From Bdellovibrionota bacterium FG-2 (GTDB lineage: Bacteria > Bdellovibrionota > UBA1018): a DNA stretch of 56,397 bases. A model generated the notes under the pieces. The model was not told where the DNA came from and made no database searches. It was given only the letters and a program-made list of their open reading frames with translations. The stretch covers positions 1 to 56,397 of the forward strand of contig JBBCAV010000168.1 in NCBI GenBank assembly GCA_051382305.1. The letters are read 5' to 3'. A program made the translations under genes and the position numbers. This document shows positions 1 through 29,083 of the stretch, one piece after another (within the stretch, counting starts at the first letter, position 1; the number at the start of each line of letters is the position of its first letter).

Positions 1-2
1 CC

Positions 3-3728: not shown

Positions 3729-3738
3729 TTCTAGCACC

Positions 3739-4377: not shown

Positions 4378-4485
4378 ATATCTATGAATCCCTTTAGATC
4401 ATGATATATTTCCATACTGAATTAATCAAGTATTTTTCTTAACAAAAACAAGTTTTTAGCGATATGACATATCGCGTTAAATACT

Positions 4486-5061: not shown

Positions 5062-5119
5062 TCCGGTTCCCTTTCGGCTGGGTTCAACTATACTTAAGAA
5101 ATAGGAAATTCTCATTATA

Positions 5120-9746: not shown

Positions 9747-9850
9747 ATTGAAAATATGCAATATTTGAATAGAACCTTGCCATATGCCGTAATCGCTGTA
9801 GAATTTAAGAAATTCACAAATACCGTAAACCTAGCCACCAAGGAGCTCAT

Positions 9851-10477
9851 ATGACGAAAAATACTGCCGTTCTTGCGATTTTTGGAATAACTCTGCTTTT
9901 GGGATCGGGGTGTTCGTCACTGACACGTGATCCAAATGTAATTCAGGCGAGCCACGATAAGAAGCCCAACTGGACCGAGGAGCCTGGCGGTAAAACAGAA
10001 AATGGGAATCATTTTTTTGTTGGCGCGGCAAGAAACATGATTGATCTTGATGGCGCTATTCAGGCGGCATCCTTGGACGCTGATCAGAAGATTGTCGAGC
10101 GGGTGAAGGTGGCAATTGTTTCCTCTGTGGCAAAGTCCAGAAATTCTGGCAATATTCAGGGCACAGAAGATACAAGTGTCGAAAATGGAAATATACCACA
10201 AACATCTTTGGATCAGGTCATCGGCAAGGCGGCCAAGGCGGTACTTTCAAACATTGAGATGTCAGGTCAATATTGGGTAAAACAGAAACTTGAGGACGAA
10301 AAAACTGGCAAAACAAAAATTCTTTACACAGCATGGAGCAGAAAGGAAGCTACCGCGAACCAACTGCGCGAGATGATTGATCGTGCCAACGGATTTCTAA
10401 AAGAGGAAAAGAAAATGAACCGTTACATGAGCAATCAGGCCCTCGAGTCTGCGAAAGAGTTGGTCGACAAACCCTAA
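9851..10477 (+). CDS. LPP20-like lipoprotein
   Basis: AAGGAG RBS, lipobox LGSGC, KPNW...FFVG...A...A pattern typical of LPP20-type domains. Confidence 0.65.
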   Translation: MTKNTAVLAIFGITLLLGSGCSSLTRDPNVIQASHDKKPNWTEEPGGKTENGNHFFVGAARNMIDLDGAIQAASLDADQKIVERVKVAIVSSVAKSRNSGNIQGTEDTSVENGNIPQTSLDQVIGKAAKAVLSNIEMSGQYWVKQKLEDEKTGKTKILYTAWSRKEATANQLREMIDRANGFLKEEKKMNRYMSNQALESAKELVDKP

Positions 10478-10492
10478 CTTTTGGGACTAGAA

Positions 10493-11671
10493 ATGTTTCC
10501 GCGCCGATTACTTTATCTTGCTGTACTAATACTTGCACTAGGCATGGGCCTCTCAGCTAACAAGATTATCGACGACATGATTGCTTTTGCGTCTCAATTT
10601 CAGGGGACTAGGTATGTCTTTGGTGGCAACGACCTTGCTCGTGGGATTGATTGCTCTGCTTTTGTCAGGCAGGTACTCTCTAAAGCTACCGGGCAGTCAC
10701 TTCCGCGAACAGCGAGAGAGCAGTTTCAATTCGGGGCACCAATAGAAAGAGAAAAGCTAAAGAAAGGCGACTTTATTTTTTTTGAAACGTGGCGTCCCGG
10801 CGCAAGTCACGTCGGCATCATGACTGGAAAAAATAACCAGTTCATTAATGCAGCCAGTTCAAAGGGCATCTCCACAGCAGTGCTTACCTCAAACTATTGG
10901 GATACTAAATACTTAGGTGCCCGTCGTTTTGTTCATACCTATGACGAACCCGCTGAGGTTAAATACTTCGACGAAAAACAAAAGTCGCAGCCTTTGCCTG
11001 AAATTTCTCAGGAAGAGTTAGCAAGAAAGACTGCGGAATTACTGCAACGTCGTGCACGAGAAGAACGAGATCAAACCGAGAGAGAACATGCTGAGAGACA
11101 ATTGAAAAAAACTGAGCTGGTACGAAATATTGCAAACAAAAGAAAGAAAGAGATTCCGGAAGTTTGCAAGAACTTGTTCACTTCTCCTTTTGAGGCATAT
11201 TTGCTGGATACGACTTACAAATTATTACCTGGGCAGCAATCGGGCCGCTTTGGTGAGACTATGTTTGTTATTGGGTCCACATCGAAAACGCAGCTCCGCG
11301 AGGGAAAAGATGGGAAGATGGAAACTTATGCTTCACGATCATGCGTTTACGTCCCATCGACGAAGAAATTTGGGGTTATCAATTCCATTGCCTTGTCCCA
11401 GGATTCGTCAGACCTCATCGTAGATCAGCGCTGTAAGATCTTTACGAGGCCTACAACAGCTAGTGTGGCCTCAGATACGACGCTTGAACTCAAATACGAT
11501 TATGAATCTGTCTTGGGCGAATACGTGGAGCCCTACAAGCTCAAGGTTGCTAAGGTTAAGGCCTCTACGTCACTGACTATTGTTGGGGAGGCTGAAACTG
11601 AAGCCGGTGACTACGCATGCGTGGAATATGAAAAGCGCGTGGTAGTGATCAACAAACTCGCCTTGAGGTAG
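10493..11671 (+). CDS. NlpC/P60 (C40) cell-wall peptidase with C-terminal extension
   Basis: YVFGG...GIDCSAFV, LPRTAREQ, GDFIFF, SHVGI, GARR motifs; signal peptide. Confidence 0.92.
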   Translation: MFPRRLLYLAVLILALGMGLSANKIIDDMIAFASQFQGTRYVFGGNDLARGIDCSAFVRQVLSKATGQSLPRTAREQFQFGAPIEREKLKKGDFIFFETWRPGASHVGIMTGKNNQFINAASSKGISTAVLTSNYWDTKYLGARRFVHTYDEPAEVKYFDEKQKSQPLPEISQEELARKTAELLQRRAREERDQTEREHAERQLKKTELVRNIANKRKKEIPEVCKNLFTSPFEAYLLDTTYKLLPGQQSGRFGETMFVIGSTSKTQLREGKDGKMETYASRSCVYVPSTKKFGVINSIALSQDSSDLIVDQRCKIFTRPTTASVASDTTLELKYDYESVLGEYVEPYKLKVAKVKASTSLTIVGEAETEAGDYACVEYEKRVVVINKLALR

Positions 11672-11697
11672 GTTTATGAAATGGAGAACGCTGAAAC

Positions 11698-12150
11698 ATG
11701 ACTAAACTTTTGATATTGCTAATTTGCGGCGTTTCACTGGCGGCCTGTGACTATGAAATCAAGAAGAAGGTAGCACCTGCGCCTGTTATACAAAGTAAGG
11801 AAGCAGAGGCGCCGCCTAGAGCTTCCGTAGAAAATGTCAATGTGCAGAAGACACCCCCTCCCGCTAAGAGTGACGAAGATAGTCTAAATCAAGTAATGAA
11901 CGAGGAAGCGGGAGCAAAGACTCCAACACAACCAAGGGTAACCGAGCGATCTCATACTTCAATGCCTGAGGCCATCGATACCGCGGAAGAAAAAAAGCGA
12001 AAAGCCCGCGCCGACGCAGCCGCGAGATTGGAAGCGGAAAACGATGCAAAACGGGCTGCCGATGCTGCGGCCGAAAAAACGGGTGGCGTTTCGTCTGACA
12101 AAGCTAAAGATGTAATCGACAAAGCTAAGGCACTACTTGATGAAAATTGA
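11698..12150 (+). CDS. Lipoprotein, low-complexity/coiled-coil
   Basis: GGAG RBS, lipobox SLAAC, Ala/Glu/Lys-rich body. Confidence 0.7.
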   Translation: MTKLLILLICGVSLAACDYEIKKKVAPAPVIQSKEAEAPPRASVENVNVQKTPPPAKSDEDSLNQVMNEEAGAKTPTQPRVTERSHTSMPEAIDTAEEKKRKARADAAARLEAENDAKRAADAAAEKTGGVSSDKAKDVIDKAKALLDEN

Positions 12151-12166
12151 GCGAGCAGTTCAAACA

Positions 12167-13249
12167 CTATAACTGTTCCACAAGCAGCTCCGAGACTAGC
12201 TCGGCCCCTTTGATGGCGAGTCTCATTTTGAGTCCACTCAAGGCCTCATCACGTTCGGCCCCCATTGCTCTCAGTGTCTTTGTTCGACGAGAAAACCGCC
12301 CCCCTTTTGGCGTAATGAGCTCAACTTCGGTCAAACCAGAAACCGAATAGGAACCAAAAACCTCTTCGATCTTGCCTAACTGTAACGTATATTTCACCTG
12401 ATACCCTACGGAGGCGATACTTCTCCCTGAGTTATGCCTAGTGGAAAAGCCTTGTCGCGCTAAAACATCAGCAATTTTTTCGGCCAAACTACCGGAGTCG
12501 CCTGGACCGCTTACAGATACCGTTACAGAGCTTCGACACTTTTGAAGTTGGGCCTGTTTCTCTTGTAGCCCCCCTGGCGCTTGAATGGATGAGGATTGAT
12601 CAAGGGCAAGGGCGAGATCACGATAACTCTGCCAACGAGAAAGATTCTCGATCATTTTTCGCCATGAGTTCATTGAGGAAGGGTCACCAGGCTGGCATTT
12701 CGAATTTGTGCCCTCCAGTTTTCTCGTTTCCAATGCGAGTTGTTTGGATTTGTTTTGCAGAGCACCGATGTATTGCCCAACATCCATGACGGCAACGGCT
12801 TCGACAGTGTTTGTTCCTTCGAATCTTTTAATCTGAGAAACATCGACCCCCTCCATTTGAACGCTAACGATTGCCCGAATAGACGTTGATTGTGTGGTGG
12901 TGGTTGAGCCTGAGTCCGAGTCACCAGTGGTTTGATTTGTACGCTTTGCGAGAGTTTGTTCGCCTTCGATTTTGGTGCTAATTGATTTGGCCAATTCGAT
13001 TCGTGCGTTTTCAACCGCAATTCTTTGGGCGCTCTCTGGATCTTCGGAAAGATTTCCAGATATTCCAAAACCTAACCTATATTTTGCGGAAGGAAATTTC
13101 TCTCTTAAAGAGGCCCGCCAACCGTCAGAGGTCAATTCACCGGCAGCTGTTGTGAGTACGCCATATGAGACAGCCATCACTGGCATGAGTAGAATTAACA
13201 AAAACTGACTGACTTTTCTTCGAGGCGGAGTCTTCTCATTGTGGTTCAT
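12167..13249 (-). CDS. LPP20-domain exported protein
   Basis: N-terminal hydrophobic segment; GFGIS...A...A...ARIELAKSISTKI LPP20-like motif. Confidence 0.7.
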   Translation of the reverse strand: MNHNEKTPPRRKVSQFLLILLMPVMAVSYGVLTTAAGELTSDGWRASLREKFPSAKYRLGFGISGNLSEDPESAQRIAVENARIELAKSISTKIEGEQTLAKRTNQTTGDSDSGSTTTTQSTSIRAIVSVQMEGVDVSQIKRFEGTNTVEAVAVMDVGQYIGALQNKSKQLALETRKLEGTNSKCQPGDPSSMNSWRKMIENLSRWQSYRDLALALDQSSSIQAPGGLQEKQAQLQKCRSSVTVSVSGPGDSGSLAEKIADVLARQGFSTRHNSGRSIASVGYQVKYTLQLGKIEEVFGSYSVSGLTEVELITPKGGRFSRRTKTLRAMGAERDEALSGLKMRLAIKGAELVSELLVEQL

Positions 13250-13342
13250 GATTAGACTTATCGGCAGATTGACGCAGGGAGGTTAGCCCCTTAACAATGC
13301 TTATGATTCAAGGCGATGAGCACTTTGAATCGGCCGTTTGAT

Positions 13343-13615
13343 CTAAGCCCGTCTTCCACATCTCATGTATCGGGTTCGCTCTGGCTCGGTCATCGGCACT
13401 AAATCTACTCCCCCATAAGGGGGCCGACAATTCCGTAAACGACGCACTACCAAAGGGATGCTCCGCCAGAGGCCCCACTCTATAATTGCCATTTTAGCAA
13501 ATTCTGAACACGTCGGTGAAAAACGACATGCCTGCCGTATTCTAACGGGCGCAAACCGTTGATATAGGCCAATCAAACAAATGGCTACTGCAGTTGAGAT
13601 CGACTGCCGCCACAT
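13343..13615 (-). CDS. yidD: YidD-like membrane protein insertion efficiency factor (haemolytic domain)
   Basis: IGLYQ...CRFSPTCSEF...G...RL..C.P...GG.D signature. Confidence 0.8.
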   Translation of the reverse strand: MWRQSISTAVAICLIGLYQRFAPVRIRQACRFSPTCSEFAKMAIIEWGLWRSIPLVVRRLRNCRPPYGGVDLVPMTEPERTRYMRCGRRA

Positions 13616-13625
13616 GGATGACCTG

Positions 13626-13883
13626 CTACACCTGTTTGAAAGTAATCACATAGTAAGTGGTACTCACTTCTTTGTGACCAAAAAGGCCCGCAAGACAACC
13701 TGGGGTCGATGTAACCCCAATTGGATCAACACGAAAGAATTCCCATCCTTGCCTTGCCATTTCGTTAACTGTTGCTTCCAAATACGCGGCAGCAACAGTA
13801 CTCTGGTCGGGTGCCTTGCCAAGCATTCCGGTCGCGGCGATTGTTACGTTCGGAGGAATTTGGACCATCTTGTATTTTGCCAT
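13626..13883 (-). CDS. DUF4177-like small protein
   Basis: KYKMV N-terminus, NEMARQGWEF motif, C-terminal ITFKQ. Confidence 0.7.
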   Translation of the reverse strand: MAKYKMVQIPPNVTIAATGMLGKAPDQSTVAAAYLEATVNEMARQGWEFFRVDPIGVTSTPGCLAGLFGHKEVSTTYYVITFKQV

Positions 13884-14332
13884 AAGTTATCCCTTTTTTG
13901 TTAACATTGAAAACGTCAAAAACATCGATTCCAAAGCAGGTGTGTTTTTACATCATTAGTATCGGCGAATTTTCTGAGTACGTTAATTTATTAGACGATA
14001 TTGCCATACCGCCGATCTCCAAGTCGCGCCTATGCACGGAGAGAATTTTCCATCAATTCTTCTTAGCGCCAATCTGATGACTGGATTCCAAATATCTGTC
14101 GGTGATTTCCGCCACACGGAATCCATCGTAAGTTGACACATCTCGCCTCACAGAAACAGCTATTACGTAATGTGCGGCTAGTACAGCTCGGCGGAATTTG
14201 GAATGCGTGCTCAAAGCACCGCCTAAATCACATCGCTTGCATGTACCCGGCAAATATCCTTTTGTCACGTCAGCCGCTTCCTCTGAGCACACTTAAAAAC
14301 TAAACTATCAAGCCCAAAAACGTGTCGGTATT

Positions 14333-16378
14333 TTACCCTCGCTGCTGCCAAGGGGGGCGCTTCTCCCTCACCTCTTTAACCCATGGCACTTCGCCCACGC
14401 TTTGGGCATCGGTGCCTGTACAAATGAAAAGCTCGGTAAACCCTCGGTCGTGAAGGTCCTTCGAGACAGTAAGTCCACTCTCACCTTTACCAAGCTTCAG
14501 ATCAACGAATATCGGAGTTGCACGATTGAGCCCCGCACAAATAGTTTCGAATTGCTCAAGCGATGCGAATGTTTTTATCTTCTTACCAACCTTCTTCGCA
14601 CTAAATCGCCAAGCGCCCCTTATTAGATCTTCATCATCAATAAGAATGGCATCAAACACAGAAGCAAGAGCATCAGAGATGAGCGGAAGCGCCGAAACAA
14701 CCGGAACAACACCCGAAAGTCCTTTTGGGATTAACTTCACGCCAAGGCTTTCAGCGCGAGTAAGAATGCCTGGCTCATCGAAGCGACTTGTAACCAAAAC
14801 TGCTTTTGCGCCAATCCCGAGACGTTCAATGCAGTCGAGGCCATTTTCAGGTTGCTCTACGAATTCATAATCAACGAGATACAGAACGCAGTCCCCATAT
14901 CCTTCCTCGTCTTTATGCCAGTGTGCAAATTCTTGCGGCGAAGAGAAATGAAATAGCTTCAAATCCAAGGCCGCAAACTCCGAAGCCTTGAAGCGTTCAT
15001 CCCAAACATGATGAATGCTCAAATCGTCATCAATAATAACGATTCGCTGTTTGGGCGTAAGTTCGATTCCTGAAACAAACCAAGCCGGAGTAGTTGCGCG
15101 GGGGATGCGTAGGGTAACCGTAGTACCTTGATCTTGCCCGCAGGAAATAAGGTCAAGTTTTGCACCCCACGATTCAAGTGTGTGTCGTGCATGATATAGA
15201 CCAAGCCCTGATCCGCCCTCCTTGTCAAAAGTCTCGCCCCGTCGACCCAAGCGCGATAGAACATCGGAGGGAATTCCCTTTCCATTGTCTCGAATTTCGA
15301 TCACGGCCTCGCCCGCAAACGCGGAAAGCAAAACCTCGACTCGCCCTCTGTCCGTCATGGCTTCAACGCTATTGTTAATGAGGTTCGAAAGAACTCGCTT
15401 GAATTCCCTTGGTTGAATGTTTGCAAAGGCGCCAAAGGCCAAATGGCTATCGATTTCAATATTGAGACGGGTGCGGTATTGGAGCCTCTTTTCGGTTATC
15501 AACTCGTCAACTAGGGTCGAAAGAAGTTGGACTGACCGGGATTCACTCGCCTGAATGACTCCAGACATCACGGGTTGTTTGAGGTCGTTTGCAATATCTC
15601 CAATTCTTAAGACTGAACGGCGCAGGAAAATCCGTTTATCTTCTGGAAGATCAGACAGCGTAGTGAGGATCATATCAAGCGCGGTAAGTGGCGAACGAAT
15701 ATCGTGTGCCACTTGTTGTCCTCGTTGAATCACGGCTTGCGAGATGGCTTCACTCGTTTTTGCTCTCTGCGCTTCAGCAAATGCTTGACGATGGACCTCA
15801 AACTCTCGAATCGAAAGTGGGGAGTCAGAAAGCATCCCTTCGGTTAACGGCTTTAGGATTTCATCGTGGAGACTTCCCTCAATCCTTCGAATCAACAGGA
15901 GCAATCCTATTATGAGAGCCGCCGAGAATAGAATTAGAAGCAAGAACGGCGCTTTGCCATACAACCAAGGAATCCCTACCCTAACATCATAATCAGCATA
16001 ACCAGAGAGAGGCGCGCGAATAAACTCCTCTTTGAATTTGAGAAACGCGAAGAATTTACTCGAACCCAGTGCTGCATCTGGGCACGCGCCGTTCGGAAGA
16101 CGAGAAGATGCAACAATGTCACCATTTTCGCAAAGCGCGGCCCAGGAACTCCCGATTTGCCATTCACTTGCGTTTAAAGTGGACTCAATCAGCATCAAGT
16201 TCTTTTGGCGAATCGCCAGGCCAGCGACTTCTGCCATGTGTCGTATGGCCTTAGCGCGATATTCGGTGGATTGTTGCCTCAAGCGATAGAGCTGCATGCA
16301 GGCCAAGGCCAGAACAATTCCGGCGATAGCAAAAAGCGGCAATCTCGTCTTGCGGTAAAACCAAACCTTGAGCCTCAT
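14333..16378 (-). CDS. Membrane-bound hybrid sensor histidine kinase with two C-terminal receiver-like domains
   Basis: Two TM segments around a roughly 100-aa periplasmic loop. H-box AHDIRSPL, N-box NLINNS, DNGKGI, GSGLGL. Receivers IIDDD...LVDY...TS...PK and LIDDE...FVDL...TG...EK. Confidence 0.93.
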   Translation of the reverse strand: MRLKVWFYRKTRLPLFAIAGIVLALACMQLYRLRQQSTEYRAKAIRHMAEVAGLAIRQKNLMLIESTLNASEWQIGSSWAALCENGDIVASSRLPNGACPDAALGSSKFFAFLKFKEEFIRAPLSGYADYDVRVGIPWLYGKAPFLLLILFSAALIIGLLLLIRRIEGSLHDEILKPLTEGMLSDSPLSIREFEVHRQAFAEAQRAKTSEAISQAVIQRGQQVAHDIRSPLTALDMILTTLSDLPEDKRIFLRRSVLRIGDIANDLKQPVMSGVIQASESRSVQLLSTLVDELITEKRLQYRTRLNIEIDSHLAFGAFANIQPREFKRVLSNLINNSVEAMTDRGRVEVLLSAFAGEAVIEIRDNGKGIPSDVLSRLGRRGETFDKEGGSGLGLYHARHTLESWGAKLDLISCGQDQGTTVTLRIPRATTPAWFVSGIELTPKQRIVIIDDDLSIHHVWDERFKASEFAALDLKLFHFSSPQEFAHWHKDEEGYGDCVLYLVDYEFVEQPENGLDCIERLGIGAKAVLVTSRFDEPGILTRAESLGVKLIPKGLSGVVPVVSALPLISDALASVFDAILIDDEDLIRGAWRFSAKKVGKKIKTFASLEQFETICAGLNRATPIFVDLKLGKGESGLTVSKDLHDRGFTELFICTGTDAQSVGEVPWVKEVREKRPPWQQRG

Positions 16379-16385
16379 AATCTCC

Positions 16386-17921
16386 CTATTTCAGCTTAAA
16401 AACATCCAGGTGCCCATAATTGCGCTGCATTAGATCGGAGTTCGCCTCTACTCGATCCCGGTTTATAATTGCAACGGCTCGACTAAAGCCAAGATGCACA
16501 AAAGGCACTTCTTCTAAAGCCGCTCTGGAAACGTTTTTGTAGTGCGAATCCAGCACCTCTTGATCAAGCAGCTTGCGGCCTTCCTCAAGAAGAGCGCCCA
16601 CTGTTTTCCTATAAATGATGGGAGCAAGAATTGACCCGCGCTCGCCCAGGGCATGGTAGATTCCGTCAGGGTCCCCATTTAAAACGCTGAAGGTCGTTGC
16701 AAAGAGATCATAGTCCTGTCGGTTGTACATGTAATTGAAGTGCTCGCCTTGAGGGATCGGTCCCGACTTTTCAGACACCGAGACGCCAAACTTCTTCAAC
16801 TCCTCAGTCACCCAAAAACCGATAGGATCCGAGATGAAGTGAATCGGGTGTTTTTTAGACGCTTCGACTAATTCTGGAATAAATTGCTCACCCTCTTTGA
16901 TTATCCGCTCTGCCTCTGAACGATCGAGACGTCCCGCCTGCGCAGGAAGAAAGATTTGGGGATCTAGCGAAAAATATTCCTTGGCGCCAATCAGAGTGGG
17001 TTCGCGCGAAATGCGACTATAGATTATGAATTGCAGAGCACGCCTGAGATTTGAGTTTTCAAAAAGATGGCCGGCCAATCCATTAATGTTAAGAACGATG
17101 TGAATGGCCTCAGGACCTGGCAGAACTTGAAGATCTGGTTGCGCAGCAACGTCGGAGAAAATTCGTGACCCCATCGTATACGCCATTGCGTCGATCCGAT
17201 TTTCCAACAATGCAGCCTTCGCGTCCCTTGACCAAACCAGGGACAACTCCACCGGCCCCAGCCCTTTGGATTCAGGATTGTATGGGTTTGGTGTGAGCTT
17301 TAGCGCAGTGGGCGAAGTCTCCTCGATTACAAATTTCCCAGTACCAATCAATTTAGTACCGACATTACGATAGGCCGATAGCCTCGCACCATCGAAGTAA
17401 TCAAGCGCCATTCGGAAGGGACGCCTAAATCGAACCCGCAAAGTTTCGTCATCGACCACGAGAATCCCGGAGATTGTCTTATTTTTCTCAAAATTCTCAA
17501 AACCTTCAATCTGATAAAGGGTGTCTAAAAGACTGCTATTAGCCGATTTTGGCTCTAAACGGTAAGACTCCTCCCAAGATCTCTTGAAGTCGTCGGCCCT
17601 AAGCGGTGCCCCGTCTGAAAAGCGTTTGGATGGGTCGATCTTGAAAGTGAACTCTCTAAAATCCTTCGAAATGCTCCAAGACTTTGCCCCACAGGGTTGA
17701 AGACCTCCGTGTTCGTCTGTCCCGACGAGTGTATCGAATTGATTCGACAAAACCAATCCCGCCCACATGGTGTGCTGCAAACCAGGATGAAGGGACTTCC
17801 ATTCGCCGCCAATTCCGAGACGAATAGGACGGGAGTGTTCCGAATTTTTTTGTATGAGGGTAACCATTGCAATTCCTCCAAGAGCCAGAATCAAAATCGG
17901 GAGCCATTTTCTTTTGAGCAT
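16386..17921 (-). CDS. Family-5 (OppA/DppA-like) substrate-binding protein, orphan
   Basis: FDTLV...P..AKSWSIS.D..EFTF.I....FSDG.PL.ADD.K.S, GTGKF, L..N..Y motifs; N-terminal anchor; no permease or ATPase gene nearby. Confidence 0.9.
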   Translation of the reverse strand: MLKRKWLPILILALGGIAMVTLIQKNSEHSRPIRLGIGGEWKSLHPGLQHTMWAGLVLSNQFDTLVGTDEHGGLQPCGAKSWSISKDFREFTFKIDPSKRFSDGAPLRADDFKRSWEESYRLEPKSANSSLLDTLYQIEGFENFEKNKTISGILVVDDETLRVRFRRPFRMALDYFDGARLSAYRNVGTKLIGTGKFVIEETSPTALKLTPNPYNPESKGLGPVELSLVWSRDAKAALLENRIDAMAYTMGSRIFSDVAAQPDLQVLPGPEAIHIVLNINGLAGHLFENSNLRRALQFIIYSRISREPTLIGAKEYFSLDPQIFLPAQAGRLDRSEAERIIKEGEQFIPELVEASKKHPIHFISDPIGFWVTEELKKFGVSVSEKSGPIPQGEHFNYMYNRQDYDLFATTFSVLNGDPDGIYHALGERGSILAPIIYRKTVGALLEEGRKLLDQEVLDSHYKNVSRAALEEVPFVHLGFSRAVAIINRDRVEANSDLMQRNYGHLDVFKLK

Positions 17922-17938
17922 GGGCTATAAGTTTCTCA

Positions 17939-18295
17939 TTATTGGCCCCAGCCACCGCCACCACTTGCGACGCTGGAACTGATGTTCTTCTCGTTTATCT
18001 GAAGAAGGCCGTTCTTCAAGAGGGTTTGTAGCGCCTGATCAAATTTTGCGTTCAATTCGTTTACGTCCTGAATCGCACTGCTCTTGCTGAAACGCACATA
18101 CGCCTCGTCAATGGTAGTCTCGGTCTCAAAATCACTGAAAAGCTGTCCTTTGATCTTGAGGGCGTCGCCTAAGAGAATTCCCTTTTGGACTTCTCCTTCC
18201 ATGGCCGAAAGTTCCGAGGTCGCGGCAAGCGAAATCGATGCTATCGGCATCACCGCTAATACTGTAAGAATCAACTTACGAAATTGCAGATGCAT
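17939..18295 (-). CDS. Small secreted protein, candidate RiPP/signal-peptide precursor
   Basis: AAGGAG RBS, Sec signal ending ISLA, helical PqqD-like body (TIDE...L..LLKNGLLQI), C-terminal SSSVASGGGGWGQ; start overlaps the radical SAM gene end. Confidence 0.7.
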   Translation of the reverse strand: MHLQFRKLILTVLAVMPIASISLAATSELSAMEGEVQKGILLGDALKIKGQLFSDFETETTIDEAYVRFSKSSAIQDVNELNAKFDQALQTLLKNGLLQINEKNISSSVASGGGGWGQ

Positions 18296-19379
18296 ATAAA
18301 TACTCCTTCTTGATTTGGGTTTGACTCATCTGAGTCTGGGGGACCAACCAACAGCCTGGATCGGCTGCCAGATAATCCCCGGTTTCGGCATAGGCCGCAT
18401 TACGATCACCGCCGCAGCGATCAAAGTGGGGGCACTCCCCACACACTTTGATTCGGCCTCGGCGAAGATTCACAAAAACAGGATGATTGAAGAAAAGCGT
18501 TTCAAGTCTATTTCCTAGGGCGCTCCCCAATGCCAAGCGTGAGCGACTTGAAGCCAGGAGACTACCCTGGTAGTCGATGACAATCCCTTCCCAGAAACGA
18601 CCGCTGCGCCCTAGCCCTGGGTGCAGGAGTGTATAAAGGGGATGATTGGCATGAGTCTTTACGCCCGTCCGAGCGGATTCGATTAGGATGGATTGGTAGG
18701 CGAGCTTTAGGGTTGTTGGCGATAGCGAGAGGTTCTTTTCCCCTGGTTGCCGAGGCTGAATAAGGCGAGTGAAGCTCATATGTGAAACACCCACTCTTTT
18801 GGCTAAATCAAAAAATGCAGGAATCTGGGGGGCGCTTCGTTGATCCAGGATAGCCTGGAAATAGGCGGAACCCCCCTCCCCCTTTAGATACTGCGCGCAG
18901 GCAACAGCCTTATCGAAACTGCCGGGGCCTCTGATTGAGTCGTGCGATTTGGCGTCCGGTGCGTCCAAACTAATTTGAATTGAAACTTCGGGGAAGCGCT
19001 TCAACAACTCGGGCTTGAGACGCTCAGGTAAAGTGCCATTGGTCAGAATTACGATGCGGGTCTTATGATCTTTCGCATGGATCCAATCCAAAAGCGGCCG
19101 AAAATGAGGACTCAGGGATGGCTCCCCTCCGCAGAGGAGGACCATAGGGCGAAACCTAAGCCGCGCAATCATCGTATAATATTGATCGAGGATACTGATC
19201 CACTCCGGCAGACCGATGGCTCCGTCATTTGTATGGTGGGGGTGATAGCAGTGGGCACACCGGAGGTTACAAAGATTGGTAATATCGAGCTGAATTGGCA
19301 GATACCGATCCACATCGATCCAAGCTAGAATCTCGTTTTCAATGCGACGGAGAATGCGAGGCAAAAAAGAGGGGATCAC
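18276..19379 (-). CDS. Radical SAM enzyme with SPASM-type C-terminal domain
   Basis: CNLRCAHC (CxxxCxxC), GGEP, TNG, QISLD, HDSIRG.GSF; C-terminal CxxCx5C...DPGC. Confidence 0.95.
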   Translation of the reverse strand: MIPSFLPRILRRIENEILAWIDVDRYLPIQLDITNLCNLRCAHCYHPHHTNDGAIGLPEWISILDQYYTMIARLRFRPMVLLCGGEPSLSPHFRPLLDWIHAKDHKTRIVILTNGTLPERLKPELLKRFPEVSIQISLDAPDAKSHDSIRGPGSFDKAVACAQYLKGEGGSAYFQAILDQRSAPQIPAFFDLAKRVGVSHMSFTRLIQPRQPGEKNLSLSPTTLKLAYQSILIESARTGVKTHANHPLYTLLHPGLGRSGRFWEGIVIDYQGSLLASSRSRLALGSALGNRLETLFFNHPVFVNLRRGRIKVCGECPHFDRCGGDRNAAYAETGDYLAADPGCWLVPQTQMSQTQIKKEYLYASAIS

Positions 19380-19606
19380 TTTGGAGTGCCAGCCTTTATG
19401 GCCTCTTTGAGGGATCGCAGGTGATCGAGACTTGAGTTGATGTGTTTAAGTGAAGCTTGGTAAAATGAGGAACCGCTTTCCTCGCCATCACACTGCGTCT
19501 CGTGAATATCGGAAAACGCTGCATCGCAAACCGTTTGTAGCGCACCTAGGCCGGCCCGGAGATCGTGATAGATTTTTTCAAGCTCTGGCAGTGTGTTTGT
19601 ATTCAT
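19376..19606 (-). CDS. 76-aa stand-alone HisKA/DHp-like protein
   Basis: YHDLRAGLGAL resembles the kinase H-box AHDIRSPLTAL; two predicted helices; ATGA/GTGA coupling on both sides. Confidence 0.6.
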   Translation of the reverse strand: MNTNTLPELEKIYHDLRAGLGALQTVCDAAFSDIHETQCDGEESGSSFYQASLKHINSSLDHLRSLKEAIKAGTPK

Positions 19607-21222
19607 TGGATGAACTCCTGGTTCTGGGTTCTTGAATCGCCTTTAAGTTTTCGTCCTAAAATCCGTCGATTTTCTTGGCGAGCTTTCGCTGTTTTAAGGC
19701 GGGTGCTGAGGCCACTTTCTGACATTTTAAGCGCTTGTGCTAAATCCCTGCCTTTTGGGTATTTCTTTTTTGCGCTAATGATAATTTGGTCGCTCAAGAT
19801 TTCAAGCAGTGGGAAAATGCCCGGAAAGCCAGGTCCCACAACGTCCAACTCGGATTTCAGCAGTTGCTTTAGATTTAACACTCCATCGCCAAACCCCATA
19901 GGAGACGCCTGCTTCAAAGTGGTGAAGATCTGCGGAATTGATCGCCAGCTATTGAGATCCGGTTTACGGTCTCGATCACGAGGAGATAAAGTAAATAGAC
20001 GCCCCAAGAGATGGTTAATTCCGCGCACGTTACCCTCGGGAGGATTAGCCATAACCTCGTGAATAAAGTCTTGCGGCAGATCTTCATAAGAAACAAAAAC
20101 CCCTGCTTCGCGTGCTACCGAGGGGACGCGGGAACGAATGAGTTCAGGAATATCCTCTGCTCTTTCCGAGAGACTTGGCATTCTGACAACGAATGAGGAG
20201 ATTCGCATATAGAGGTCTTCACGAAATTCTCCGCTTCTTACCATTGTCTCAAGGTCTCTGTTGGTCGCACAGATGAGCTTGAAGTTGGATCTTAGAATCG
20301 TGTTCCCACCCACTCGGGTGAATGCGCCTTCTTCGATAACTTTAAGAAGCTTAACTTGAAGCTCAAGCGAGGCTTCACCGATTTCGTCTAAAAAAATCGT
20401 TCCGCCATTTCCCATTTCAAAAATGCCGGGCCGCATTTTCATTGCCCCAGTAAAGGCGCCCGCTTCATGTCCGAAAAGTTCACTCTCTACGAGACTAGGA
20501 GATATGGCCCCCATGTTTTTTTCGATAAAGGGACGCGCAGATTGGTCGAGATAATCGCGTCTAAGCTCGTTTATGATCTTAGCGTAGGTCGATTTTCCCG
20601 TTCCAGTTTCTCCTAAAATCAAAAGTGGATAATTGCTTTGAGCAAAGAGTGGAGCCTGTTGCCTGAGTTGGCGGATTGGAAGTGAAATCCCCGCCAGCTC
20701 TGGGGTCTCAGATTTTACGCCCTTGGACGATGGGGGCTGCCCTAGATCGGCGAGAGAACTTTCGACTACCAATTTCTCATGACGAATTGCCGCTTTGATT
20801 TGCTCACGCAACAAATCGTCTGAAGTTCCTTTAACATAATAGCCGAATGCCCCGAGCTTAATGGCCCTCACGGTGTCTTGATGGTCGGTACTTACTGTGA
20901 CGACTATGATCTGAAGATGTGGTTGAAGCTGAAGGAAACGCCCGATGAAGTTGATGCCATTCGTTTCGGGGTCATCGCCGTCAATGTCGTCACCCAAGTT
21001 CTTATCGAGAATCAAAACCTGAACGGGTTTTTCGGCAAGGGTTCGAAGCGCATCCTGCGCGGTAAAACAGTAAACAGCGCGGAGATTTTTCGTCGCCTCA
21101 TCCCTTTTTAAAATGAGCTTCATCTGCTGATGCATGAGTTCGTCATTATCAAGCATTAGAATGCTAGCCCCCTCCTTAAAATCAGAGGGTGGAGAACTAG
21201 ATTTTGGAAAATTAGGCTTCAT
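19603..21222 (-). CDS. Sigma54-dependent response regulator (NtrC family: receiver, AAA+, HTH)
   Basis: Receiver (LILD, T, VK), GETGTGKS, ESELFGHEAGAFTGA, FLDEIGE, FREDLY.R, GNVR, C-terminal LAQALKMSESGL HTH. Start taken at ATG 21222; the frame is open to 21300. Confidence 0.95.
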   Translation of the reverse strand: MKPNFPKSSSPPSDFKEGASILMLDNDELMHQQMKLILKRDEATKNLRAVYCFTAQDALRTLAEKPVQVLILDKNLGDDIDGDDPETNGINFIGRFLQLQPHLQIIVVTVSTDHQDTVRAIKLGAFGYYVKGTSDDLLREQIKAAIRHEKLVVESSLADLGQPPSSKGVKSETPELAGISLPIRQLRQQAPLFAQSNYPLLILGETGTGKSTYAKIINELRRDYLDQSARPFIEKNMGAISPSLVESELFGHEAGAFTGAMKMRPGIFEMGNGGTIFLDEIGEASLELQVKLLKVIEEGAFTRVGGNTILRSNFKLICATNRDLETMVRSGEFREDLYMRISSFVVRMPSLSERAEDIPELIRSRVPSVAREAGVFVSYEDLPQDFIHEVMANPPEGNVRGINHLLGRLFTLSPRDRDRKPDLNSWRSIPQIFTTLKQASPMGFGDGVLNLKQLLKSELDVVGPGFPGIFPLLEILSDQIIISAKKKYPKGRDLAQALKMSESGLSTRLKTAKARQENRRILGRKLKGDSRTQNQEFIQ

Positions 21223-21305
21223 TGTACTGGAACTCACCCGAGAACCTCGCTTCGAGCGGTTTTTAGCTCGGCGCGTCAACAAATGCAAATACAAATTCAC
21301 TGAAT

Positions 21306-21370
21306 CGAATATTCGGGCGCTGAAAAATTCGTTTTGGCGAATTATTTATTCGAAATTCAGAATTTCGAAT
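21306..21370. promoter_or_regulatory. Cluster of palindromes, candidate enhancer (UAS) sites for the sigma54 activator
   Basis: CGAATATTCG (21306-21315), AATTCG-N6-CGAATT (21326-21343), perfect ATTCGAAATTC-A-GAATTTCGAAT (21348-21370), 100-165 bp upstream of the -24/-12 box. Confidence 0.6.
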
Positions 21371-21429
21371 CTTTTTGGCGGTTTTTGGAGACATCACTTC
21401 TTCACTAGAAAACTGTTTTTTTGACGTAA

Positions 21430-21442
21430 AAACAAATACTTA
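21430..21442 (+). promoter_or_regulatory. Possible IHF site between enhancer and sigma54 promoter
   Basis: AAACAAATACTTA, one mismatch to WATCAANNNNTTR, in an AT-rich tract. Confidence 0.35.
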
Positions 21443-21470
21443 ACAAAAGAAACCCATTCCTATCGCCATG

Positions 21471-21485
21471 TGGCACGGATACTGC
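21471..21485 (+). promoter_or_regulatory. Sigma54 (-24/-12) promoter for the conjugation-side operon
   Basis: TGGCACGGATACTGC: GG-N10-GC spacing, near-consensus, 52 bp before the first ATG (21537) and divergent from an NtrC-family gene. Confidence 0.85.
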
Positions 21486-21536
21486 CTAAGGGGTTCCCGT
21501 TCGGCTCAACTTCCCCGAACTGAAAGGAGTAGTTTC

Positions 21537-21782
21537 ATGGACCTAAATTCGAACCAGCGAATGAGTTTGGCAAGCCTTCCTTCGGATGTCTTCAACCAAT
21601 GCCCACGCTGCGAAAGTCTCGGGATTCTAAAGTTTGAAGGAGAGGCCTTCTGCCTTCGCTGCGATTGGGACAGCGTTAGGCTTCATGTGGATTGCCAAGT
21701 GTTTGGCTATCGCATGCTGAATCGCCAGTGGCCAATCCTAGGGGTCAAGGCAGATACCCAATTAGCTTACTCAAACCAATGA
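21537..21782 (+). CDS. Small zinc-ribbon protein (copy A1)
   Basis: AAAGGAG RBS; CPRC-x13-CLRC followed by DWDS. Confidence 0.75.
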   Translation: MDLNSNQRMSLASLPSDVFNQCPRCESLGILKFEGEAFCLRCDWDSVRLHVDCQVFGYRMLNRQWPILGVKADTQLAYSNQ

Positions 21783-21825: not shown

Positions 21826-22044
21826 ATGAATACAATAACTGCTTCCGAAAAAGACAACACCTTCGATGTGATTCAGCTCATCCATGCAGGAGTCCAAAAC
21901 TTCAAAGCCCTTCAGCAAAGAGTTCGGGAACGCCTTAAGAAAATGAACCAAGATGCCGCCGAGACACAACATCGAATTGAACTTGCCAAAACGAATTGGG
22001 ATTCAGCCAATGGATACTACTCCTATCTTCGAGACTTCAGATAA
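21826..22044 (+). CDS. Small helical hypothetical protein (B1)
   Basis: AAAGGA RBS; coiled-coil-like body ending NGYYSYLRDFR. Confidence 0.65.
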   Translation: MNTITASEKDNTFDVIQLIHAGVQNFKALQQRVRERLKKMNQDAAETQHRIELAKTNWDSANGYYSYLRDFR

Positions 22045-22058: not shown

Positions 22059-22274
22059 ATGGGAGTCCAAAAGGAATCGATTAAGAAACCGCGCGATGTC
22101 TTCAAGAAATGTCCACGGTGTAGCCGTGGTCCACTGATTACATTCGATGATGACGTACTTTGTCCTGCTTGCCCTTGGGACAGTATTTCTCAGTACTCAG
22201 ATGCCCTCTTTGATCATCGAGTCGGTCCCCTGTTTGCACTCCCAACAGCTTCACCCCTTCTCGTCGTAGTTTAA
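22059..22274 (+). CDS. Small zinc-ribbon protein (copy A2)
   Basis: DVFKKCPRC-x13-CPACPWDS, paralogous to 21537..21782. Confidence 0.7.
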   Translation: MGVQKESIKKPRDVFKKCPRCSRGPLITFDDDVLCPACPWDSISQYSDALFDHRVGPLFALPTASPLLVVV

Positions 22275-22304: not shown

Positions 22305-22508
22305 ATGAAAACCGAATTTAGAACAACTCCCCTAAAAGATACGCGACTACGCCGCATTATGGCGCAGACTCAGACCTTATTACGGGCACAGCTCACTCGT
22401 TTGAACAAAGTAATCATCAAGGCTCGTGAAGCCGACGAACAAAATCAGAGGTTTCTCGAACAAAGTGCAATGGAGCATGGCTACTTCTGGACGCGCGAAC
22501 GCTTCTAA
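22305..22508 (+). CDS. Small helical hypothetical protein (B2)
   Basis: AAAGGA RBS; coiled-coil-like body ending HGYFWTRERF. Confidence 0.65.
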   Translation: MKTEFRTTPLKDTRLRRIMAQTQTLLRAQLTRLNKVIIKAREADEQNQRFLEQSAMEHGYFWTRERF

Positions 22509-22549: not shown

Positions 22550-24931
22550 ATGGAAACTCGCAAAACCATACTTATAACTAAGATCATCCCCTTCCTTCTA
22601 TTGCTCACCTTTGACGCTGGATGCTCTAAAAGCGGAAACAAAAACGGTAATGCGGGAACCCAAAGCCTCGAAGGTGCGCCTCTCGCCAAGGCTCAGACAC
22701 CTTCCGAAACAATTCCTGAAGCGAGTCCTCAACCAGAAGCTGTCTCTCCACCACCGGCTCCACGGACGGAGCCCATCACTTTGATTCCAAAACCAACGCC
22801 AGAGCCGTCACCTTCGGCATCACCAGATGCGGTCGTCACACCCATACCGGTTGAACTTCAGGAGCCAGATTACTTAAGTTCATCCAAATACTCTGACTAC
22901 GGATTGGTCGAGGCGCAAACCATCTCACCTCGTTACCTTCGCGAATTGCGCGCACGCACTCAGGGCAGTGAGCTTGTCAGACTGCGTGTGGGCAAGTTGG
23001 ACGCAGTGAGTGTGTACTGGCTTAAAGGCTATGAATTCAAAAATGCCGTTGTGTTTCAGCCCAAGATATTTGTTTCAAGCTCACTCACGGGTGGACGACC
23101 CAGAATTATCGAGGGACCGGACGCAACTGCCTCAATGACAGTGGCCCTCGCTTTCGTCGATGGGATGACGCCAAATCTCTCAACTCCCTTTGGACCGCGT
23201 GAAGTTCCAAGCCAATACCGGATCAATGATTTGGCAGGAATCAAAGATCAGCTCTACAAGATCATGGGCGGCGCTCCCTTGATCTTGGGGTTCAATCGCT
23301 GTCCCGTAAAACTTGCACTTCAAATGGAAGCGCAAACCAAGATTTCAATTGTCCTCCCACCAGGACTTACCACTTGCCCGATCAACACCTTCATCCCCGC
23401 TACGATCAGGGCTTCAAAAGATGTGCTCAGGCGATTACTCGAGGACTCCATAACGCGCGGGGTGCCCGAGATCTCCGCAAAATGGGACCTCTCAACTCCA
23501 ATTGCGGTTAAGGCAGTATCGGCCCACATCAAAAATGAACCTATGGAAAAACGCTTGGATGCCGTATGGAAACGCGGCGGTACGGTGCTCGCCACTGAGG
23601 CCGTCGAACAAATAGACCTCCTCGCCCGTGAAGTATTCAAGGATCTAGACCTCACTCCGTCTCAGTTGCTGCTTAATGACCTAAGTACGCAAGTCATTAA
23701 ACAGGATTTCTCAGAACTGCCCCGAGCCCAGTGTCCCAACGGAGTGCGCTGCTTCAAGCGTAACGCTGTGGGAACGGGCCGTGATTTTGACCTAAACGAC
23801 ATCGATAACGAGTATTTTGGTCCCGAGATGCCGATTGCAGCGCGCGCGGCGCTTTATGAAATCATCAGCGAGAAATCCGCCATCATGCTTAAGCGAGATG
23901 ACCGAAACTTCTTTGACCCTCCGGTGGGCGAGCTGAACAATACGCTTCGCATGGTTTCAGAGGGAGACCTAATCGAAATCAATCTTGAAAAGTTTCTCAA
24001 AACCGAAATCAGAACGCCTGAGCCTGTCGTGCGCTTTGAGCCAAACAAAAGTTGCGTTGAAACCTTCATGCAATGCACGAATGGAGGTTGGATTTGCATC
24101 AATAAAGGGACGGAGCCCGACAACTGTCGAACAGCCTATGAAACAGTGGGGCGCTGCGATCGCTGCACAGACGTCATCGCACCAGGAGCGAATTGTCACG
24201 TCTTTGGCTGCGATCCAATCGCACTTGCCTGCACCAAACAGTGTGGAGGCACGCGCTGTGATGCGTGCGCCAGGGAACAAAAAGGTATAACGATATGCGA
24301 TCAGGTTCCACTTTGCTTGAGGCTCAGTAAATCCCCGCCGCCAAAGCCTGTGCCGTATCGAGTGAATCCCACACCTATAATGACGGCGGATTTCGTCTGG
24401 GTTTGCAGTCGATTTGAAGAGGTCTGCGCCAGATACGAGGAACATTGGGAGCGATTCACCCAGTTTGCCGAACCTGCGCTTGGTGTGACGTCGGTTGAAA
24501 GACCCCTTATGGAGTTGGATTTAACCCAAATCGTGGGTGGCTTGGATCTCCGCTTCCTGAGTTCCGGTCCAAACAAGCGTTACGACGTTACTTGTCCCAT
24601 GCTTAAGTTTGATTGGCACTTCTCGGGAACGAGACTCTTTGCACGCATCCAAAACGTCGCGGGTTGCCCTGATATCTTCAACCAAGATAATCGTCGCGAA
24701 GGCTATGCGCCTACGCTTTCAATCATCAATCGCATCTCTATGCCTGAGCGTTTTCGGTGTGGGAGTCTAACAGAAACGTATCGAGGAGAGATGTTTAACG
24801 TCTGTGTTTTGCCTGATGGATCGCGCGAAGAATCGCATGAACCCATTTGGAAGAGCTATTTCCCTAGGGTTGAACTCCAGGGTTCGATTCGGGTGCTGGG
24901 AGCATATTTTGAAAGTGAATTGGAGGAGTGA
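22550..24931 (+). CDS. Large Cys-rich lipoprotein, unknown function (paralogue 1)
   Basis: GAGG RBS, lipobox DAGC, Pro-rich tether, dense Cys insert in the C-terminal third. Confidence 0.8.
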   Translation: METRKTILITKIIPFLLLLTFDAGCSKSGNKNGNAGTQSLEGAPLAKAQTPSETIPEASPQPEAVSPPPAPRTEPITLIPKPTPEPSPSASPDAVVTPIPVELQEPDYLSSSKYSDYGLVEAQTISPRYLRELRARTQGSELVRLRVGKLDAVSVYWLKGYEFKNAVVFQPKIFVSSSLTGGRPRIIEGPDATASMTVALAFVDGMTPNLSTPFGPREVPSQYRINDLAGIKDQLYKIMGGAPLILGFNRCPVKLALQMEAQTKISIVLPPGLTTCPINTFIPATIRASKDVLRRLLEDSITRGVPEISAKWDLSTPIAVKAVSAHIKNEPMEKRLDAVWKRGGTVLATEAVEQIDLLAREVFKDLDLTPSQLLLNDLSTQVIKQDFSELPRAQCPNGVRCFKRNAVGTGRDFDLNDIDNEYFGPEMPIAARAALYEIISEKSAIMLKRDDRNFFDPPVGELNNTLRMVSEGDLIEINLEKFLKTEIRTPEPVVRFEPNKSCVETFMQCTNGGWICINKGTEPDNCRTAYETVGRCDRCTDVIAPGANCHVFGCDPIALACTKQCGGTRCDACAREQKGITICDQVPLCLRLSKSPPPKPVPYRVNPTPIMTADFVWVCSRFEEVCARYEEHWERFTQFAEPALGVTSVERPLMELDLTQIVGGLDLRFLSSGPNKRYDVTCPMLKFDWHFSGTRLFARIQNVAGCPDIFNQDNRREGYAPTLSIINRISMPERFRCGSLTETYRGEMFNVCVLPDGSREESHEPIWKSYFPRVELQGSIRVLGAYFESELEE

Positions 24932-27756: not shown

Positions 27757-27809
27757 GCCCTAAAACAAAACCACAAACAAAGCCAAAAACAAGAAAAGGA
27801 GAAAATGAA

Positions 27810-28199: not shown

Positions 28200-28211
28200 A
28201 AAGGGGGAAAC

Positions 28212-28757: not shown

Positions 28758-28760
28758 AAA

Positions 28761-29078: not shown

Positions 29079-29083
29079 TCTAT

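Follow-up and report, generated by a model that had tools for sequence, protein, structure and literature searches.

Several described systems share parts of the arrangement reported here. The LuxP–LuxQ/LuxU/LuxO pathway of Vibrio combines a periplasmic solute-binding protein (SBP) and a hybrid kinase with a separate histidine phosphotransfer protein and a sigma54 response regulator. In PrgZ/cCF10 of pCF10 and Rap–Phr of ICEBs1, an element-encoded OppA-type SBP and an exported peptide set transfer-gene expression, and to our knowledge the control of conjugation by a self-made peptide is found mainly on such Gram-positive plasmids and integrative and conjugative elements (ICEs); the signals of Gram-negative elements are acyl-homoserine lactones or other small molecules. 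In the ChvE–VirA–VirG system of the Ti plasmid, a periplasmic SBP modulates a membrane kinase that switches on a mobile-element type IV secretion system (T4SS). In the present study, we analysed a 56,397-nt stretch of DNA (the window) from Bdellovibrionota bacterium FG-2, which is contig C168 (JBBCAV010000168.1) of a 433-contig metagenome-assembled genome (MAG) that is 85% complete. It contains a six-gene cassette, with genes for a radical-SAM enzyme and a small exported protein among them, which lies divergent to a run of conjugation genes. Compared with the Lux pathway, the SBP here belongs to family 5 and the middle protein is DHp-like rather than an Hpt four-helix protein; the ligand would be a gene-encoded tail instead of AI-2, and the output would be a T4SS operon. 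In pCF10 and ICEBs1, unlike here, the peptide enters the cell by import and has its target in a regulator of the cytoplasm, with no radical-SAM enzyme, kinase or sigma54 involved, and ChvE–VirA–VirG differs in responding to external plant sugars through an OmpR-type, sigma70-dependent regulator with no self-made ligand. A full-text literature search, judged from titles and abstract openings, returned no description of such a cassette.

The six open reading frames (ORFs), all on the minus strand, encode in order a sigma54 activator (19603–21300), a 76-aa DHp-like protein (19376–19606), the radical-SAM enzyme (18276–19379), the 118-aa small protein (17939–18295), the SBP (16386–17921) and a hybrid kinase (14333–16378). 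Neighbouring genes overlap by 4, 4 and 20 bp and are then separated by gaps of 17 and 7 bp, and the original prediction of six tightly joined genes in this order was confirmed by the ORF coordinates and by Pfam. The 76-aa and 118-aa proteins had no match in Pfam or NCBIfam. The cassette diverges from a −24/−12 element at 21471–21485, which stands at the head of an 18-kb run of transfer genes. The cassette is a conserved, mobile signalling unit and its anatomy is real. The reading that we favour, with confidence a little short of even, is that it is a portable unit which makes its own ligand and sets the sigma54-dependent expression of adjacent conjugation genes. Such a self-made ligand loop would be the most economical reading of the fixed order of the radical-SAM, small-protein, SBP and kinase genes, and we infer its biochemical steps from sequence.

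Two further copies of the radical-SAM gene were found in the same genome, on contigs C206 (91% identity) and C107 (79%). C107 has all six genes and a zinc-ribbon gene, followed by TraU, a T2SSE-type ATPase, TraF, TraE, TraK, TrbI and an 869-aa VirB4. C206 is a decayed and rearranged copy, which has lost the whole activator and kept the DHp-like, radical-SAM, small-protein and SBP genes. On its minus strand (3520–4329; locus L009 of genome G000, the window's own), a chimeric 269-aa ORF joins a relative of the window 29084–29377 product, which lies just before VirB4, to the activator's lid and C-terminus; this ORF lies behind a single-stranded DNA-binding protein (SSB) gene with two followers and beside a 119-aa integrase fragment.

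Relatives in other genomes were collected by a pattern scan for the radical-SAM enzyme with one genome per species, which found 300 sequences, 80 of them kept. The enzymes of L017–L047 (n=31) were 37–53% identical and that of L050 62% identical over a fragment, followed by a break to ≤32%. We excluded L048–L096 except L050 as non-orthologous (≤32%), and L079, a 69-aa enzyme fragment at a contig end (61%), was also left out. Of 401 genomes drawn from across the phylum, 15 from scattered families were positive (E≤1e-5) for a profile of the small protein, which added six loci, so that with the 32 found by the enzyme and the three of the window's own genome 41 loci were compared. Their flanks were analysed using tblastn and all-against-all clustering, the labels of small clusters (including four marked ‘Hbox2?’) coming from blastp clustering rather than curated models. 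By label, the loci belong to Bdellovibrionota (Bdellovibrionia, Bacteriovoracia and Oligoflexia) and, in five cases, to Elusimicrobia. The order radical-SAM enzyme, small ORF, SBP, kinase was kept nearly everywhere, with an activator-family gene upstream in 22 sources, and the predicted synteny was thus borne out in its core across 41 loci and two phyla. The kinase gene comes after the SBP gene in every complete locus, and in ten loci its start coincides with or overlaps the SBP stop. The small ORF, which homologous operons had been expected to keep, was present with its leader in 23 of the 24 loci that were found through the radical-SAM enzyme alone and have an intact interval from this gene to the SBP gene; the sole exception was L046, in which the radical-SAM gene is also split. 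In L024, a transposase-like ORF of approximately 450–476 aa (2662–4092) lies between the small ORF and a truncated SBP gene.

T4SS genes were detected with the window and C107 proteins as seeds and with a VirB4 hidden Markov model (HMM) built from the flanks, a procedure by which distant systems may be missed. They were present in the flanks of 13 of the 41 loci and in 11 of the 19 loci having at least 8 kb on both sides (11/16 in Bdellovibrionota and 0/3 in Elusimicrobia). Three gene sets were distinguished: the window's own, one with VirB4 and four small partners that recur (the VirB4 set), and one with TraU, T2SSE and TraF (the TraU/T2SSE/TraF set). In the window, C107, L020, L022 and L050, the T4SS genes diverge behind a leading zinc-ribbon gene; in L031 they diverge without a zinc ribbon, and in L017, L026, L028, L030, L040, L102 and L104 they lie downstream of the kinase gene. 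Both G000 and G089 carry two cassettes paired with different T4SS types. In G089, one of the two cassettes (L102 and L104) precedes the VirB4 set and the other the TraU/T2SSE/TraF set, a pairing as in the window's genome. More than one copy was also found in the MAGs behind L026/L031, L027/L028 and L030/L040, and this multiplicity, together with the patchy occurrence, fits mobile DNA. The recurrence beside three T4SS gene sets, and yet also in T4SS-free loci, indicates a portable regulator that was repeatedly recruited and is not specific to conjugation.

The sigma54-type promoter element TGGCACGGATACTGC (21471–21485, plus strand) was identified by pattern matching and is conserved in C107. 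It is the sole exact match to TGGCACGNNNNYTGC in the window, for which shuffled sequences gave an expectation of 0.02, with a match in two of 100 shuffles, and it ends 52 nt ahead of an ATG at 21538 that is preceded by GGAG. Initial promoter patterns demanding TTGC, or W after the GC, had no match in the window because the −12 element here is CTGCC, and scans for sigma70 promoters and terminators returned only shuffle-level matches. A perfect 11+1+11 palindrome, ATTCGAAATTC-A-GAATTTCGAAT (21348–21370), is a candidate binding site of the activator, centred 112 nt upstream of the −24 element; in C107 a palindrome with related half-sites, TTCAAAATT-N3-AATTTTGAA, lies 113 nt from the promoter. On the 3′ side, a leader block (21486–21521, plus strand) is conserved in the intergenic alignment of the window (W168) with C107 and contains a 6-bp stem, GTTCGG/CCGAAC at 21499–21520, read by eye. 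The promoter and this block (~35 nt after the promoter) are the best-conserved stretch of the alignment. The C107 promoter is kept as TGGCACAGATCATGC, and promoter, leader block and palindrome are the conserved intergenic blocks, with the same spacing in the window and in the 78%-identical C107 copy though the T4SS sets of the two differ.

The activator is a sigma54 enhancer-binding response regulator composed of a receiver (REC), an AAA+ domain with GAFTGA and an HTH-like C-terminus (19603–21300, minus strand). Pfam matched Sigma54_activat with 185.9 bits (cut-off 20.2) and Response_reg with 49.5 bits (cut-off 30.2; residues 47–168), and the GAFTGA loop is readable in the translation. By comparison with the C107 copy, its true start is likely to be at 21222 (Met27). 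The NCBIfam LuxO model gave 188.7 bits, far under its cut-off of 800. An rpoN gene is present in the genome (457 bits, above the cut-off).

Across loci, −24/−12-like elements were scanned for with TGGCACGNNNNTTGCW, with GG and GC fixed and up to two mismatches allowed, giving 43 matches in 588,321 bp. An element was present in the upstream intergenic region of 13 of the 14 full-length co-directional activators having 5′ sequence. Five of the 13 face zinc-ribbon/T4SS genes and eight the activator gene itself (L017, L026, L027, L028, L030, L031, L032 and L040), the latter suggesting autoregulation. Two elements 3′ of the kinase gene face the TraU set (L030 and L040), and three are located upstream of a radical-SAM gene without an adjacent activator (L033, L045 and L046). 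In L020, L022 and L050, the scan missed a TGGCA(C/T)G-N4-TTGT sequence approximately 60–70 nt before the zinc-ribbon gene, which was read by eye and has an atypical GT in its −12 part. The sigma54 link of the cassette to conjugation genes is thus well supported by position, orientation and conservation, and it is not universal.

The candidate substrate of the radical-SAM enzyme, and candidate ligand of the system, is the small exported protein (118 aa; 17939–18295, minus strand), which consists of a leader (KLILTVLAVMPIASISLA|A), a folded middle and a tail (SSSVASGGGGWGQ). Its N-terminus is Sec-signal-like by eye, with basic residues, a hydrophobic core and small-x-Ala before Ala25. A word-index search for homologues retrieved only five small proteins and the ESM Atlas gave no usable match; a full HMM scan of 1.84 billion protein representatives gave 153 matches at E≤0.001 and 63 at E≤1e-10. 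The lengths of the family cluster at ~100–135 aa and 43–75 aa, with short forms making up 34 of 152 representatives. Mean pairwise identity was 0.42 over leader residues 8–25, compared with 0.13 in the middle part and 0.10 in the tail. For the neighbouring SBP the pattern was reversed, with 0.14 in the signal region and 0.41 in the mature part, and the unusual conservation of the leader suggests an extra constraint such as recognition by the radical-SAM enzyme. Pro17 of the leader is invariant in 26 of 26 sequences, and a leader proline motif was present in 142 of the 152 representatives. At the other end, ‘PS’ occurred within the last 12 residues in 65/152 representatives compared with 20/729 control windows; the serine was most often two residues from the end (29/65), and an aromatic residue or histidine followed within two residues in 43/65. 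The tail is variable around this Pro-Ser-x-aromatic core, and Ser111 is its only invariant residue within the window-type class. A second class has ends such as SGALSIGTAF and a YYDF-type motif in mid-protein. The combination of a short ORF beside a maturase gene with a conserved leader and a variable core is that of the precursor of a ribosomally synthesized peptide with post-translational modifications (RiPP), and we know of no maturase substrate motif that the Pro-Ser-x-aromatic C-terminus matches.

One HMM representative, P0031 (476 aa), is an in-frame fusion of the radical-SAM enzyme with the small protein, either natural or a sequencing error. We modelled it using AlphaFold2 with an alignment whose rows consisted of radical-SAM enzymes and small proteins. 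The mean predicted local confidence score (pLDDT) was 88; the leader was modelled as a helix and the last six residues had a low confidence of 56. Residues 401–470 form a domain with a pLDDT of 92–97 and a helix-strand-helix-helix-strand-strand order, an order that reads as winged-helix-like. The confident fold of this domain indicates that the long forms, that of the window among them, are not simple peptides: each is a small protein that folds and leaves a short tail free. Short forms (43–75 aa) are without the folded domain. The mature product of the window gene would therefore, on the model, be a ~10-kDa periplasmic protein and not obviously a diffusible autoinducer.

These features bear on true quorum sensing, in which a small, processed, radical-SAM-modified peptide would diffuse and be read by an element-specific SBP as a measure of carrier-cell density, with pherotypes. 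The short forms (34/152) would yield mature peptides of approximately 20–45 residues, the tails vary between distant loci, and the activator gene has its own −24/−12-like element in eight loci, a positive-feedback layout typical of autoinducer circuits. Against this, the window form is long and its homologous domain confidently folded, and the cassette is without a protease or outer-membrane exporter. The predicted co-variation of tail with SBP gave no signal: the three copies in the window's genome share nearly identical tails, which points to cross-talk rather than pherotypes and makes the within-genome comparison uninformative. Between loci, the radical-SAM enzyme, SBP and tail type diverge jointly, and shared descent explains this as well. 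The folded long forms and the same-genome identical tails thus argue against a cell-density or pherotype reading, which we consider unlikely.

Within the reading of a self-made ligand, the modifying step would fall to the radical-SAM enzyme (367 aa; 18276–19379, minus strand; Radical_SAM 65.8 bits). Its cluster motif CNLRCAHC (CxxxCxxC) is invariant in five sequences, and four C-terminal cysteines (Cys313, Cys316, Cys322 and Cys343) are also invariant, forming CX2CX5C plus one distal residue. A full SPASM motif has seven cysteines, and the ‘SPASM’ label originally given to this protein holds for a radical-SAM enzyme with four invariant C-terminal cysteines and not for the complete motif; the auxiliary site suggested by these residues is a partial SPASM or twitch-like one. 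All 25 listed radical-SAM matches to NCBIfam maturase families were under their cut-offs (best, TIGR04053 with 92.3 bits against 395), the MftC and PqqE models covering almost the whole enzyme far below theirs. For the radical-SAM part of the P0031 model (41% identical), the closest structure was anSME (E 7e-16; TM 0.67–0.71 on target), followed by SkfB, ChlB, SuiB, CteB, TigE and PqqE, and a sequence profile search agreed. Every one of the closest solved radical-SAM structures is a SPASM/twitch enzyme that modifies peptides or proteins. The cassette enzyme shares the fold class of anSME, SkfB, SuiB, CteB, PqqE and MftC, and differs from SPASM/twitch maturases in having four of the seven cysteines and in reaching no NCBIfam cut-off. 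MftC and PqqE modify aromatic residues near the C-terminus of a peptide. anSME oxidizes a serine or cysteine residue of Sec-exported sulfatases before export and needs no RiPP recognition element (RRE). It is the nearest working analogy, and remains an analogy: an RRE-less enzyme, a conserved serine and a Sec-type substrate. Gene adjacency, the one fusion (P0031) and the fold class are the only pointers to a possible action of the enzyme on the small protein.

The SBP (511 aa; 16386–17921, minus strand) is an orphan of family 5, or cluster C (OppA/DppA/NikA-type), with an N-terminal hydrophobic anchor, and matched SBP_bac_5 with 95.5 bits (cut-off 32.4). Its counterparts across loci begin with hydrophobic anchors or lipobox-like sequences, as read by eye. 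No ABC permease or ATPase gene was present among the window ORFs scanned, and none formed a recurrent cluster in the flanks of the other loci. The closest solved relatives are OppA, DppE, MppA, NikA, PrgZ (E 1.5e-13) and MbnE, and the ligands of such relatives include peptides, murein peptide, a nickel chelate, an opine, a pheromone (PrgZ) and methanobactin (MbnE). This variety raises the possibility that the SBP–kinase pair responds to a compound from outside, for example peptides, fragments of murein or a metal chelate coming from prey or recipients. The radical-SAM enzyme and the small protein would then be a co-inherited accessory, either as a subunit that modulates the sensor or as a secreted product in its own right. 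Binding proteins that act as co-sensors of external ligands are well known (ChvE–VirA and LuxP–LuxQ), and solved relatives such as MppA, NikA, the opine binders and MbnE would suit such a role. A complex prediction for SBP residues 26–511 with the mature small protein (residues 32–118), run without controls, scored 0.02 against a mark of 0.32; it gave no answer and counts neither way. What makes an external ligand improbable in our view is that two phyla retain the order radical-SAM enzyme, small ORF, SBP, kinase, its junctions being short or overlapping, even without activator and T4SS, which would be hard to explain if the first pair were unrelated to the second.

The hybrid kinase (681 aa; 14333–16378, minus strand) has, by eye, two hydrophobic segments around a putatively periplasmic domain of ~115 aa, followed by the H-box AHDIRSPL, HATPase_c and two receiver-like domains. 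Pfam matched HATPase_c (70.3 bits), with HisKA (20.1 bits) and Response_reg (20.0 bits) below their cut-offs. An alignment of 18 kinases showed a DD/D/T/K receiver pattern, and at least one receiver-like domain ends every complete kinase. The term ‘hybrid’ used in the original prediction can thus be kept for the DD…D…T…K pattern, and the Pfam score for Response_reg does not reach the cut-off. The receivers are of two types, A and B, and the window, C107 and L036 carry both. A PDB sequence search with the kinase C-terminus returned a single match (E 0.53). Ahead of the first membrane segment, all kinases start with L-x-x-W-F-x-K/R-x-x-x-x-P-L, a conserved motif on the cytoplasmic side.

The 76-aa protein (19376–19606, minus strand) is a free-standing DHp-like helix hairpin and a candidate histidine phosphotransfer protein. 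His14 and Asp15 are invariant in seven sequences, and the model is a two-helix hairpin with a pLDDT of 78. Hhalign aligned it to the DHp domain of its cognate kinases with 92% probability (E 6e-7), placing the histidine on the phospho-accepting histidine, and HisKA weakly matched one of the seven family members (E 0.0065). A Foldseek search with the model gave no match at E≤0.001, kinases appearing among generic helical hairpins, and a PDB sequence search gave nothing significant. An Hpt identity of the LuxU type was rejected, given the absence of a Pfam match and the hhalign result pointing to a kinase DHp; what had been called a lone H-box protein is a free-standing kinase-type histidine hairpin. 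Its gene accompanies six of eight kinases with a type-B receiver and none of nine with type A only. We take the protein to be a putative minimal Spo0B-like phosphotransferase serving receiver B. As in Spo0B-type proteins, a histidine of a DHp-like hairpin would putatively shuttle phosphate between two receivers, here on a 76-aa protein without an attached CA-like domain.

Taken together, the parts suggest the following sequence of events. In the cytoplasm, the small protein would be acted on at its C-terminal tail by the radical-SAM enzyme, most likely on the conserved serine beside the aromatic residue, and Sec would then export the product, with the leader possibly doubling as a recognition handle for the enzyme. 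In the periplasm, the transporter-less SBP would recognize this product and modulate the membrane kinase. Phosphate would pass from the kinase histidine to its own receiver, then to the DHp-like protein and finally to the receiver of the activator, as domain content and co-occurrence suggest. The activator may then bind the palindrome ~112 nt upstream and open the −24/−12 promoter, both sites being present in the sequence, and so drive the zinc-ribbon pair together with the run of T4SS, coupling-protein and integrase genes.

Several observations weigh against a self-made ligand that governs conjugation through sigma54. At the output end, the HTH-like stretch at the C-terminus of the activator (LAQALKMSESGLSTRLK) was read by eye and Pfam gave no HTH match, and the −12 elements are off consensus (CTGC here, ATGC in C107 and TTGT in L020, L022 and L050). 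In L018, L019, L037 and L044, a 205–214-aa regulator replaces the sigma54 activator; it seems to combine a receiver with an HTH of Fis type, as read from L013, and to lack AAA+, and these cassettes would therefore not be sigma54-dependent. Seed proteins, a weak detector, revealed no T4SS in eight of the 19 fully flanked loci or in any of the five Elusimicrobia loci, and the predicted linkage to a T4SS is accordingly a repeated one (13/41 and 11/19 fully flanked) that is not ICE-specific. At the input end, the radical-SAM enzyme lacks both the full seven-cysteine SPASM motif and an N-terminal RRE, the six genes include no exporter or leader protease, and the folded domain of ~70 residues in the long forms is unusual both in RiPP precursors and in diffusible signals. 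In the window's genome, the three copies have nearly identical tails (SGGGGWG) with SBPs that are 92% and 66% identical, so there is no sign of ligand–receptor specificity. In the relay, Pfam leaves the receiver domains of the kinase unconfirmed, and hybrid kinases are also found in loci that lack the DHp-like gene. Of the peptide circuit that had originally been proposed, the conserved unit, the repeated T4SS adjacency, the −24/−12-like elements and rpoN stand; ICE-specificity and pherotypes find no support.

That the cassette is mobile-DNA cargo regulating something else, its T4SS adjacency reflecting shared mobility, would fit the eight of 19 fully flanked loci without a nearby T4SS, whose miscellaneous neighbours include an IS66 transposase, an outer-membrane efflux protein, a CCA-adding-type enzyme and a LysM protein, and would also fit the decayed C206, which keeps its radical-SAM, small-protein and SBP genes after losing the whole activator, but we consider it very improbable since −24/−12 elements face transfer genes in the window, C107, L020, L022, L050, L030 and L040, three unrelated T4SS gene sets are found joined to this one cassette, and the spacing of promoter and palindrome is conserved in two copies driving different T4SSs.

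The genes behind the promoter form one co-directional run on the plus strand from 21538 through an integrase gene ending at 39702. Its first genes encode two paralogous CxxC…CxxC zinc-ribbon proteins (21538–21782 and 22060–22274), each followed by a small helical protein (21826–22044 and 22305–22508). The zinc-ribbon proteins have no Pfam match. A homologue is the first divergent gene in C107, L020, L022 and L050, and these proteins may form a second regulatory tier. The co-directional transfer genes (22550–37554) include two large paralogous secreted proteins, an SSB, the T4SS and a coupling protein. The large proteins, of 793 and 942 aa (22550–24931 and 24928–27756; mutual phmmer E 1e-23 to 6e-25), have a signal-like N-terminus and a cysteine-rich region; they have no family match and no relatives in the other cassette loci. 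Further along are a VirB4/TraC-type ATPase (29374–31611; TraG P-loop 55.2 bits, with the TraC and VirB4 NCBIfam models under their equivalog cut-offs), a TrbI/VirB10-like protein (34220–35113), a weak candidate for a MobC-type relaxase (35346–36050; MobC_subf 41.6 bits against a cut-off of 200) and the coupling protein (35986–37554; TraG-D_C and TrwB 45–50 bits). A tyrosine integrase (38449–39702; Phage_integrase 57.3 bits) ends the run. The promoter had been described as heading a T4SS–relaxase–integrase run, and the exact −24/−12 match, the T4SS and the integrase agree with this; the relaxase is represented by the sub-cut-off MobC match.

The window thus has the VirB4-type ATPase, coupling protein and integrase that characterize an ICE. 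No tRNA gene and no convincing flanking direct repeat that would serve as an att pair was found in the window. Genome G001, of the same genus, lacks nearly all of the window flanks (1–14300 and 38000–56397), with the exception of 498 bp at the right end (95% identity), and no empty site could therefore be placed. Past the first integrase, 39826–42271 contains DUF6932, an HTH_3 protein and, on the opposite strand, a second tyrosine integrase; nested or adjacent mobile elements are possible there. At the left end of the contig (3–1705) are IS21-type remnants, with a weak match to a Mu-transposase C-terminus and then IstB (176 bits), and 5120–9375 encodes tandem paralogous PEGA-domain proteins of 701 and 719 aa, whose DNA repeats are 72–75% identical with a spacing of ~2.18 kb.

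A broader form of the self-made-ligand reading, which we advance tentatively and regard as rather doubtful, is that these cassettes represent a hitherto undescribed class of Gram-negative self-signal, in which an RRE-less, anSME-like radical-SAM enzyme alters the Pro-Ser-x-aromatic tail of a Sec-exported protein or peptide whose signal peptide is also the recognition leader, a transporter-less OppA-type SBP and a hybrid kinase read the product, and a DHp relay passes the signal to sigma54; at least three unrelated conjugation machineries would have captured it as an on-switch, and it would be the first sigma54- and radical-SAM-dependent control of transfer. If true, the cassette would add a gene-encoded, enzyme-modified ligand read by an SBP/kinase pair, a sigma54 route to transfer-gene expression and a very small stand-alone DHp phosphotransfer protein. 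The analysis also defines a family of small exported proteins, approximately 150 sequence clusters in size, that share a C-terminal core, together with a radical-SAM clade. With its modular build and its occurrence beside three types of T4SS, the cassette may serve the mobile elements of Bdellovibrionota as a general plug-in regulator.

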